A stretch of DNA of 64,000 nt, taken from sequence record OM632671.1; one strand, given 5' to 3'. The translations under genes were made by a program, and so were the position numbers. This document shows, piece after piece, positions 37,725-38,226 of this stretch; the stretch's first letter is position 1, and each line of letters begins with the position of its first letter. The notes beneath the pieces were generated by a model. That model saw nothing but the letters and a program-made list of their open reading frames with translations, searched no databases and was not told the DNA's origin. This DNA is from Escherichia phage BEU50.

Positions 37725-38018
37725 GTTTTAGGTGATTCGCTACCTTAGTGCGGCTAGAAAATCGAGGAGCCGTCGAACTGTCTGATTAATGATTTGCGAA
37801 TCATTATAGTTTTAAGACCCCGGCAGTTTTACGGTGTACCTCTTGAATGTATTTTGTACTATCACGCGTCAGAAAAAGGTTATCTGTCTAAGTCGTGGTT
37901 GGTATGATGACGGGTTTATGGTTATCCTGTCGTTAAATATCCAAAACCTATGTTCCCTTCGAGGGCTTGCGCAGGCAATGTCAATAAGTCCTGCATTTTC
38001 ATTTAAAGAGAATTTATA

Positions 38019-38198
38019 ATGGCAAAACAAGCTAAAGCAAAGAAAGCAGTTGAAAAGAAAGTTGATGGTACCTCTAAACGCGCTGGATACAAGCGTGGGT
38101 CGAACTCTCGTATTAATCAAACAGTTGAGAAGATCATGCGCAGAGCACGTGCAGTTCTTCGAGATGATGCTTCTCGTTTTGGAAAGGTTATTGCATAA
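38019..38198 (+). CDS. hypothetical small basic protein
   Basis: 59 aa, Lys/Arg-rich, E. coli-like codons; followed by strong terminator. Confidence 0.4.
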   Translation: MAKQAKAKKAVEKKVDGTSKRAGYKRGSNSRINQTVEKIMRRARAVLRDDASRFGKVIA

Positions 38199-38203
38199 TT
38201 TTA

Positions 38204-38226
38204 GGGAGACTTCGGTCTCCCTTTTG
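38204..38226 (+). terminator. rho-independent terminator GGGAGAC-TTCG-GTCTCCC plus T-run
   Basis: 7 bp perfect stem, UUCG loop, TTTTG. Confidence 0.75.

Follow-up and report, generated by a model that had tools for sequence, protein, structure and literature searches.

Structured RNA modules, led by a ToxI-like unit, between genes rIII and 30.9 of Escherichia phage BEU50 and other T4-type phages

We analysed the region between genes rIII and 30.9 in a 64,000-nucleotide (nt) stretch of Escherichia phage BEU50 (OM632671.1), referred to here as the window. The source is a T4-type phage of the genus Mosigvirus (RB69-like), and the closest records are 99.4% identical to it across 37300-38330. Between the two genes lies a non-coding gap that begins with a single unit resembling ToxI, a type III antitoxin RNA, and continues with further structured RNA modules. 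As the original prediction, made from the letters of the window, had stated, these roughly 300 base pairs (bp) hold no credible open reading frame (ORF). rIII ends at 37724 and a 59-amino-acid (aa) ORF begins at 38019; the candidates in between (37 aa from TTG, 61 aa from GTG and, on the minus strand, 26 aa) are not kept in close relatives, where their frames shift or the ORFs are lost, so that none is credible. For comparison, the rIII-30.9 region was gathered from 44 loci via the 30.9 protein, together with annotated records. The features of the locus, in window coordinates, are as follows.

37476-37724, plus strand: gene rIII
37725-38018: non-coding gap between rIII and 30.9, 294 bp
37726-37763, plus strand: module X, a single ToxI-like unit, with core AGGTGATTCGCTACCTTAGTGCGGCTAGAA at 37730-37759, 5' tail TTTT and 3' flank AATC
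37764-37842, plus strand: module B1, a branched hairpin of three stacked helices and a side hairpin
37764-37767 with 37839-37842: helix P1 of B1
37769-37773 with 37831-37835: helix P2 of B1
37775-37782 with 37822-37829: helix P3 of B1
37787-37794 with 37799-37806: hairpin P4 of B1; conserved single strands of B1 are CTGAT and TAGTTTTAAGACCCC
37861-37899, plus strand: module D, a hairpin with conserved internal loop ACGCG...CTAAGTC, inner stem CAGA/TCTG and loop AAAAGGTTA
37903-37948, plus strand: module A, an H-type pseudoknot with conserved 5' flank TATGAT
37909-37914 with 37926-37931: stem S1 of A
37920-37923 (loop GGTT) with 37945-37948 (AACC): pseudoknot pairing of A
37932-37944: A-rich connecting strand of A, GTTAAATATCCAA, 13 nt
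37952-37969, plus strand: module C, a short hairpin, GT-TCCC-TTCG-AGGG-CTTG
37971-37994, plus strand: module E, a hairpin, GCAGG-CAATGTCAATAAGT-CCTGC, followed by a U-rich stretch
37978-38019, plus strand: upstream ORF of 13 codons, MSISPAFSFKENL, whose TAA overlaps the ATG of 30.9 (TAATG)
38019-38198, plus strand: gene 30.9, a basic protein of 59 aa
38204-38221, plus strand: intrinsic terminator hairpin GGGAGAC-TTCG-GTCTCCC, then TTTTGTGCGTTT to 38233

The first 40 nt of the gap, AGGTGATTCGCTACCTTAGTGCGGCTAGAAAATC, are suggestive of a ToxI antitoxin repeat, and blastn against plasmids confirmed the resemblance. X matches 58 plasmids, usually several times per record. In pPA21A of P. atrosepticum the matches form a 37-nt array of 13 units whose end lies some 50 nt ahead of a gene for a ToxN/AbiQ-family toxin, and in pTA141-2 of E. 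coli they form a 36-nt array of 5.6 units (AGGTGATTTGCTACCTTTAAGTGCAGCTAGAAATTT) directly upstream of the toxin gene. Across 5,426 complete E. coli genomes, only gap positions 1-43 find matches, at 105 places that all lie on plasmids of 40 genomes. A proposal that the region is the remnant of a foreign insertion is thus half right: its first 40 nt come from the bacterial plasmid antitoxin RNA ToxI, whereas X is conserved and intact and hence no decaying remnant.

Aligned on the ToxI core, X differs from E. coli ToxI by U9C, A25G and a loop 2 nt shorter. The same U9C/A25G pair is found in the pseudo-ToxI of phage PhiTE, where it was described as compensatory (Blower 2012, PMC3475682), and in the ToxI of pPA21A. 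C27 and U28, each essential for ToxN inhibition, are both retained in X (GCTAG is kept), and the U-loop of ToxI tolerates shortening (Blower 2012, PMC3475682). The X stem covaries across relatives (CGC/GCG, CAC/GTG, TGC/GCA and AGC/GCT). X is single-copy per genome, here and in relatives, and does not show the tandem repetition of ToxI; natural antitoxin arrays have 1.9-5.6 units (Blower et al. 2012 NAR). In sequence, predicted pairing and key nucleotides, the ToxI-like character of X is solid. Copies of AAAT border the unit, 40 nt apart, at 37719-37722 (in the last rIII codons) and 37759-37762. ToxN is reported to cut at AAAU. A role of the gap in RNA processing, one of the options first offered for it, is possible given that AAAU motifs flank X.

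ToxI-like units were found in 200 phage records from several families. Separately, an otherwise unknown phage fragment in a metagenome (L142, contig CEGF01011706.1) carries an X-like unit, GGAGAGTCACTACCGTTAAGTGTGGAT, and module A about 200 nt apart after the end of an ORF, so that a ToxI-like unit is again linked with the pseudoknot. Our literature search, whose coverage was incomplete, turned up no earlier description of a ToxI-like unit between rIII and 30.9 in T4-type phages and nothing relevant on a T4 small RNA there.

The comparison of loci revealed the mosaic build of the gap. At every locus where both genes were located, the order is rIII-gap-30.9 (rIII was undetected in L013 and L043), and the gap ranges in length from 120 to 416 bp. 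Alignment and inspection resolved it into discrete blocks: X, B1, B2, D, A, C, E and C2. T4-type phages differ in which of these blocks they carry and in what order, through gain, loss and rearrangement. B2 is not in the gap of BEU50. T4, whose homologous gap measures 244 bp (130541-130784), carries homologous X, B1, A, C and E, and D is absent there; RB69-like phages are without X. B1 and B2 stand in tandem in three phages (L030, L031 and L037). A Mosigvirus contig, L005, has rIII and 30.9 proteins identical to those of BEU50, yet is without X and B1.

The gap as a whole folds no better than its shuffles (z = -0.43), and neither strand does. The evidence for structure is the covariation within individual modules. 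In the folding and covariation comparison that had been proposed across related phages, most modules have pairings kept by compensatory changes. The structures and covariation of B1 and A were tested with dedicated tools, and those of X, D, C and E were read by eye or by script.

In an alignment of 15 B1 variants, 98.9% of cells are paired, and both partners have changed in six pairs. Covariation scores 0.164, compared with 0.093 for shuffles, none of which (of 500) reached the observed score; slid controls are 28-63% paired. Folding of the single sequence returns the same structure (z = -3.0), and the conserved G-U pairs 14-89, 20-83 and 28-75 fit a plus-strand RNA. B1 was found in 660 phage records. 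These results also separate the nested inverted repeats that had drawn attention to the region. The hairpin TAATGATT-TGCG-AATCATTA (37787-37806) is helix P4 of B1 and shows compensatory changes. By contrast, GATTCGC (37734-37740) and GCGAATC (37796-37802) are present as letters, but their pairing is unsupported because the halves lie in X and B1, which occur separately in relatives.

B2 is a 145-nt domain of other genera (L010-L012, L014, L015, L017, L019-L022, L024, L027, L029-L031, L037 and L040-L044) that is closed by a covarying 4-bp helix. Of its 43 predicted pairs, 21 show compensatory changes. A GNRA-type hairpin and a long-range helix, TCTTATC/GATAAGA, are among its features, and by eye there are apparent kissing loops (CGATGG/CCATCG, CTATGG/CCATAG and CAATGA/TCATTG). 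B2 was found in 403 phage records from many genera, in none of which it is annotated as RNA, and is absent from Rfam. It has the appearance of a separate RNA with a complex fold.

Pseudoknot A is present in every rIII-30.9 gap examined. Among 24 variants, 81.8% of cells are paired (66.6% in shuffles) and 53 cells carry double changes (23.8 in shuffles). The covariation score of 0.417 compares with 0.170 in shuffles, was reached by 0 of 500 of them, and exceeds the 0.07-0.135 of slid controls; five of the seven pseudoknot pairs show compensatory changes. A covariance model of A detects exactly one copy per genome and recovers copies outside its training set, in L087 (a 55-kb viral contig, 57.5 bits), in L142 (56.6 bits) and in a Vibrio phage (32 bits). 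A metagenome scan for A returned T4-type copies plus one new phage context. A degenerate A motif matched at 22 places in 185,579 species genomes, which is no more than chance; the S1 complement is missing from every one of them, and several fall within coding sequence.

The geometry of A raised the possibility that A and hairpin C form a pistol-type self-cleaving ribozyme or a variant of one. The hairpin loop of A pairs with a downstream strand that is followed by GUUAAAU, S1 and the pseudoknot covary, and, like A, the pistol ribozyme has an A-rich linker and a hairpin loop engaged in a pseudoknot with a downstream strand. In this layout A is similar to the env25 pistol ribozyme (class Rfam RF02679) over its P1, pseudoknot and linker. 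Pistol ribozymes are also common near phage genes (PMC4604425). Nevertheless, no P2 helix can be drawn, the conserved 2-nt P3-P2 junction is missing, C has no fixed place relative to A, which it can follow, precede or stand well away from, and some phages lack it, and a 136-nt search at E <= 10 gave no Rfam pistol match. In the pistol fold as described (PMC4604425), a fixed 2-nt junction of the P2 and P3 helices bears the cleavage site. With P2, a fixed P3, the cleavage junction and the Rfam match all lacking, we rejected this candidate, and the chance that it is nonetheless correct appears very slight.

The remaining hairpins are smaller. The stem of C is kept through eight types (CCC/GGG, CCCT/AGGG, CCTC/GAGG, GCT/AGC, GCCT/AGGC and others), and its position varies between phages, before A, after A or distant from it. 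The stem of E changes to AACTGG/CCAGTT in L023 and L028 with the loop CAATAAG retained, as judged by eye. D is the weakest of the modules, its support having been read by eye: the inner stem CAGA/TCTG becomes CAGC/GCTG in L005 and L026, and the outer stem is replaced in L026 by GCTCTA/TAGAGC.

Taken together, the gap is a chain of conserved, independently folding RNA modules and not junk. The suggestion of a small structured RNA therefore holds for the structure and fails for the number, as there are at least six separate modules instead of a single RNA. The same data bear on the view that the gap is ordinary intergenic sequence, or a decaying insertion remnant, conserved through close kinship. 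Two facts would suit such a view: the whole gap folds like its shuffles, and most of its copies in close relatives have over 90% identity. However, B1, A, C and X show compensatory changes, as does the B2 of relatives, the structures survive in unrelated phage families at 75-81% identity, and it is the pairings that are conserved and not the reading frames. The covariation contradicts this explanation, to which we give hardly any credence.

Database and genome searches gave no match to a known class for B1, A, D, C and E. Rfam 15 gave chance-level matches only, both over 37200-38500 and in the focused 136-nt search (37890-38025, E <= 10). ARAGORN found no transfer RNA (tRNA) or transfer-messenger RNA gene in the window, and a promoter and terminator scan yielded nothing useful within the gap. 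No second copies of the modules were detected in the window by blastn-short or covariance model, a match at 57075 lying in a coding region. B1, D, A, C and E have no counterpart on plasmids or in the 5,426 complete E. coli genomes. B1, A and B2 appear to be undescribed structured RNA families, outside Rfam and unannotated in the records examined. We also considered a tRNA-like cloverleaf that would close X, B1 and A together; its acceptor pairing (5' flank of X with the linker of A) shows no covariation and the module order varies, and it was rejected.

Several modules recur in phages outside the T4 type, at tRNA clusters. In the Justusliebigvirus phages phi92 (L079) and muut (L083), the T4-type block X, B1, A, C and E lies between tRNA-Gly and tRNA-Gln. 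After it come the 40 final codons of rIII, and its flanks are formed by a direct repeat, TTTATTGGAGATT, that overlaps the 5' end of tRNA-Gln. In layout, the insertion (L079 2470-2815, and L083) is a circular permutation, with the gap first and then the rIII 3' end joined at the 30.9 start. A terminator-like hairpin stands just upstream, and a 42-codon ORF annotated there as 'putative rIII' is the rIII fragment.

The slot of this block in phi92 is also the slot in which Certrevirus DU_PP_I, a member of the Vequintavirinae (the subfamily that includes rV5), has three exact ToxI repeats between tRNA-Gly and tRNA-Gln. PhiTE, too, has been described as rV5-like (Blower 2012, PMC3475682). Six further Vequintavirinae carry B1 and A (UPEC06, LTH01, A7_1 and A5-4) or B1 alone (A73, and W70 as judged from a two-piece match). 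These copies are about 81% identical to those of BEU50, have compensatory changes in P1, P3 and P4, and lie just upstream of a tRNA-like sequence and tRNA-Met. L087 has A alone between tRNA-Asp and tRNA-Pro. In Vibrio phage 424E50-1, A is placed some 480 nt downstream of the tRNA genes, within a long stretch that is non-coding, and its pseudoknot there is re-paired as UAUUUU/AAAAUA. This spread into the tRNA clusters of unrelated phages marks the modules as mobile functional units. Two side observations concern the same contexts. The stretch in Vibrio phage 424E50-1 (L176 640-1880) is about 1.2 kb long, holds tiny doubtful ORFs and may contain further structured RNAs, and a 473-aa protein by the tRNA cluster of L087 (8936-10357) has, by eye only, a vWA/DUF2828- or Ro-like (TROVE) look.

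Such positions could indicate that the modules are processing or stability cassettes for host ribonucleases (RNases), with RNase III acting on B1, RNase E/G, or an RNase P-like cut at the pseudoknot. Their role would then be to part the cistron of rIII from that of 30.9, or to mature adjacent tRNAs, and to protect RNA ends. The modules do occupy the spaces that separate cistrons or tRNAs, A in L087 directly adjoins with its 3' end the 5' end of tRNA-Pro, which is the RNase P cut position, and B1 stacks about 17 bp with small internal loops. RNase III substrates are comparable in size to the B1 helix. The highly conserved single-stranded junctions and the pseudoknot nevertheless exceed what cleavage sites need, the modules are optional among near-identical phages, and X has a specific explanation other than RNase recognition. 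We therefore consider processing cassettes improbable.

Leadership of the downstream gene is a stronger competitor, and it draws on the end of the gap. The 59-aa, very basic ORF of the original prediction exists and is gene 30.9, annotated as such in ATK47 and T4. Its product matches PHROG 1427 (function unknown) at E = 1.9e-31 and is conserved in T4-type phages, with 22 invariant residues in the alignment; searches of Pfam, NCBIfam and PDB returned no relative. The strong terminator that had been pointed out behind it folds at -17.2 kcal/mol (z = -3.6), is followed by a T-run, and is also annotated in the ATK47 and G53 records. Just ahead of 30.9, the loop of hairpin E contains the start codon of the upstream ORF. 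An additional A in T4 joins this ORF in frame to 30.9, from which a gp30.9 of 72 aa would result. The upstream ATG of other genera is a different one (MYFSKMED...) and can be in frame or out of it. Given that the upstream ATG is in frame in some phages and out of frame in others, the frame is not conserved. The last ~70 nt, which comprise C, E, the upstream ORF and the Shine-Dalgarno region, probably have a further role in setting the translation of 30.9.

On this basis the whole gap might be a cis-acting leader of 30.9 that governs messenger RNA (mRNA) stability, processing or translation, for example through autoregulation by the basic gp30.9 or coupling via the upstream ORF, with the ToxI-like piece co-opted or a neutral passenger. 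The rIII-gap-30.9-terminator order is kept across loci, and hairpin E, the upstream ORF ending on the 30.9 ATG and the Shine-Dalgarno region all lie at the 3' end of the gap. In addition, a related cassette (C2 with an anti-Shine-Dalgarno/Shine-Dalgarno hairpin) precedes 30.9 elsewhere and rIII here, and gp30.9 is small, basic and highly conserved. On the other hand, B1 and A are under structural selection in phages without an adjacent 30.9, module order and content vary freely while 30.9 is nearly constant, L005 with its identical 30.9 is without X and B1, and X is intact at the ToxN-binding positions. We regard a leader role for the gap as a whole as unlikely, though less so than processing cassettes.

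Instead, we favour, with some reservation, the reading that the locus serves RNA-based counter-defence, combining a ToxI mimic with trans-acting modules. In the sequence of events that we infer, the gap would be transcribed on the plus strand within a 31-rIII-30.9 message ending at the 38204 terminator. In a host that has ToxIN, an abortive-infection system, the phage would shut off host transcription, host ToxI would decay and the ToxN RNase would be freed. The phage-made look-alike X could then rebind ToxN, so that the abortive response would be blunted or delayed. X might be trimmed by ToxN itself at the bordering AAAU motifs. For phage ToxI copies, the known mechanism is to replace decaying ToxI and so keep ToxN inhibited (Blower 2012, PMC3475682). 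A single X would probably be a weak inhibitor and a possible seed for expansion, as in PhiTE; it might also act at natural ToxN levels or add to the effect of the protein TifA. B1, D, A and C, for their part, most likely act in trans as well, by binding host factors that could include other RNA-regulated defence proteins. We rate this role as the most likely one for them because they are autonomous, optional and co-located with a proven type of anti-defence RNA.

Several observations weigh against a counter-defence role. X is a single unit, compared with several in natural ToxI and in the PhiTE escape loci, and one cloned PhiTE pseudo-ToxI repeat (C27G, U28A) failed against over-expressed ToxN (PMC3475682). 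The X loop is 2 nt shorter than that of ToxI, and its 5' tail is UUUU, not AUUC. T4, T2 and T6 have a more diverged X and are strongly blocked by plasmid ToxIN, while RB69, which is without X, is the least affected, an outcome credited to TifA (PMC9391042). This pattern implies that X alone gives no resistance. Furthermore, B1, A, D and C are without a bacterial counterpart on plasmids, in E. coli genomes and in the 185,579 species genomes, so that the decoy idea for these modules rests on context; their place in a leader is likewise compatible with action in cis on the stability or translation of the mRNA.

Comparison with known systems helps to place X. Like X, the PhiTE pseudo-ToxI is a non-coding 36-nt ToxI copy in a phage, with U9C/A25G and a shortened U-loop (PMC3475682), and the PhiTE-related DU_PP_I has its ToxI repeats among tRNA genes. 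X differs in belonging to a T4-type phage, where it lies between rIII and 30.9 amid other structured modules. It is also one full unit, whereas PhiTE pseudo-ToxI has 1.5 or more repeats, and it keeps C27 and U28, both of which PhiTE pseudo-ToxI lost. With the ToxI of pTA141-2 and pPA21A, X shares the core sequence, the predicted pairings and A-rich motifs at the unit borders; unlike them, it has no adjacent toxN, no tandem repeat, a loop 2 nt shorter and another 5' tail. TifA (Srikant et al. 2022, PMC9391042) shares with X the T4-type phage group and the presumed target ToxN, but is a protein, encoded beside dmd, whereas X would be an RNA route and possibly a redundant one.

A further parallel lies with lone phage copies of host defence RNAs that titrate a protein partner. 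Camara-Wilpert et al. reportedly described such RNA anti-CRISPRs in 2023, as solitary mimics of CRISPR repeats in phages; the mimicked system differs from that of X, and no likeness of the modules to CRISPR repeats was established. T4 rnaC and rnaD are, like the modules, small structured phage RNAs associated with tRNAs and of unknown function; no similarity between them and the modules was seen by eye, and the A model finds nothing in the T4 tRNA region.

Mimicry of antitoxin RNAs by phages is already known, and what appears to be new is the rIII-30.9 location in T4-type phages. Type III antitoxin RNA mimicry has had one worked example, PhiTE. An intact ToxI-like unit at a fixed, conserved position in T4-type coliphages, together with the ~200 phage records, suggests a widespread strategy, in which X would be a second, RNA-based route of escape from ToxIN besides the protein TifA.

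A broader possibility, which we entertain only tentatively, is that the rIII-30.9 gap and the tRNA-cluster slots in phi92-, rV5- and Vibrio-phage lineages constitute an RNA-only counter-defence island, each module being a decoy or inhibitor for a different effector. X would then act against ToxN, A against a second widespread toxin, for example of the TenpN type, and B1 and B2 against further systems. TenpI antitoxin repeats, found in enterics and Vibrionales, measure 39-57 nt (Blower et al. 2012 NAR). The length (~55 nt) and host range of A fit TenpI, these two properties being the whole of the comparison. No TenpI-like array was recognised on Y. pseudotuberculosis p153kb outside bases 100001-103140. 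If the island exists, the modules would found several new families of anti-defence RNA in phages, with T4 included among their carriers.

Beyond the gap, the neighbouring genes of the locus are these.

36082-36663, plus strand: cd
between cd and gene 31, plus strand: 31.1
37019-37351, plus strand: gene 31
3' of the terminator, plus strand: 30.8, then 30.7

The description of the region as GC-richer (GC, guanine plus cytosine) is accurate relative to the downstream 30.x genes, at 0.40-0.45 versus 0.33-0.37; it does not hold against cd, 31 and rIII upstream, which are similar. The gap between gene 31 and rIII (37352-37475) opens with a late-promoter-like TATAAATA at 37352-37359, followed by a hairpin, GAAGAG-AACA-CTCTTC. 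A structured element ahead of rIII, at 37386-37447 (GGTAGCC...CTGA...TCAG...GGCTACT), is homologous to the C2 leader, GGGAGC...CCGA...TCGG...GCTCCC, which precedes 30.9 in Klebsiella and Enterobacter T4-type phages. An anti-Shine-Dalgarno/Shine-Dalgarno hairpin also lies before the rIII start codon, like the one that accompanies C2. As this type of leader stands before rIII here and before 30.9 in other genera, one leader cassette serves two genes. Further downstream, early-promoter-like sequences (GTTTAC...N17...TACTAT / TATTAT) occur at 38258-38290 and 38703-38745, before 30.8 and 30.7, where they overlap stem-loops GGTACAGGT...ACCTGTACC. These elements resemble the promoter-plus-stem-loop cassettes that Arbiol et al. 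reportedly described in T4-type phages in 2010.

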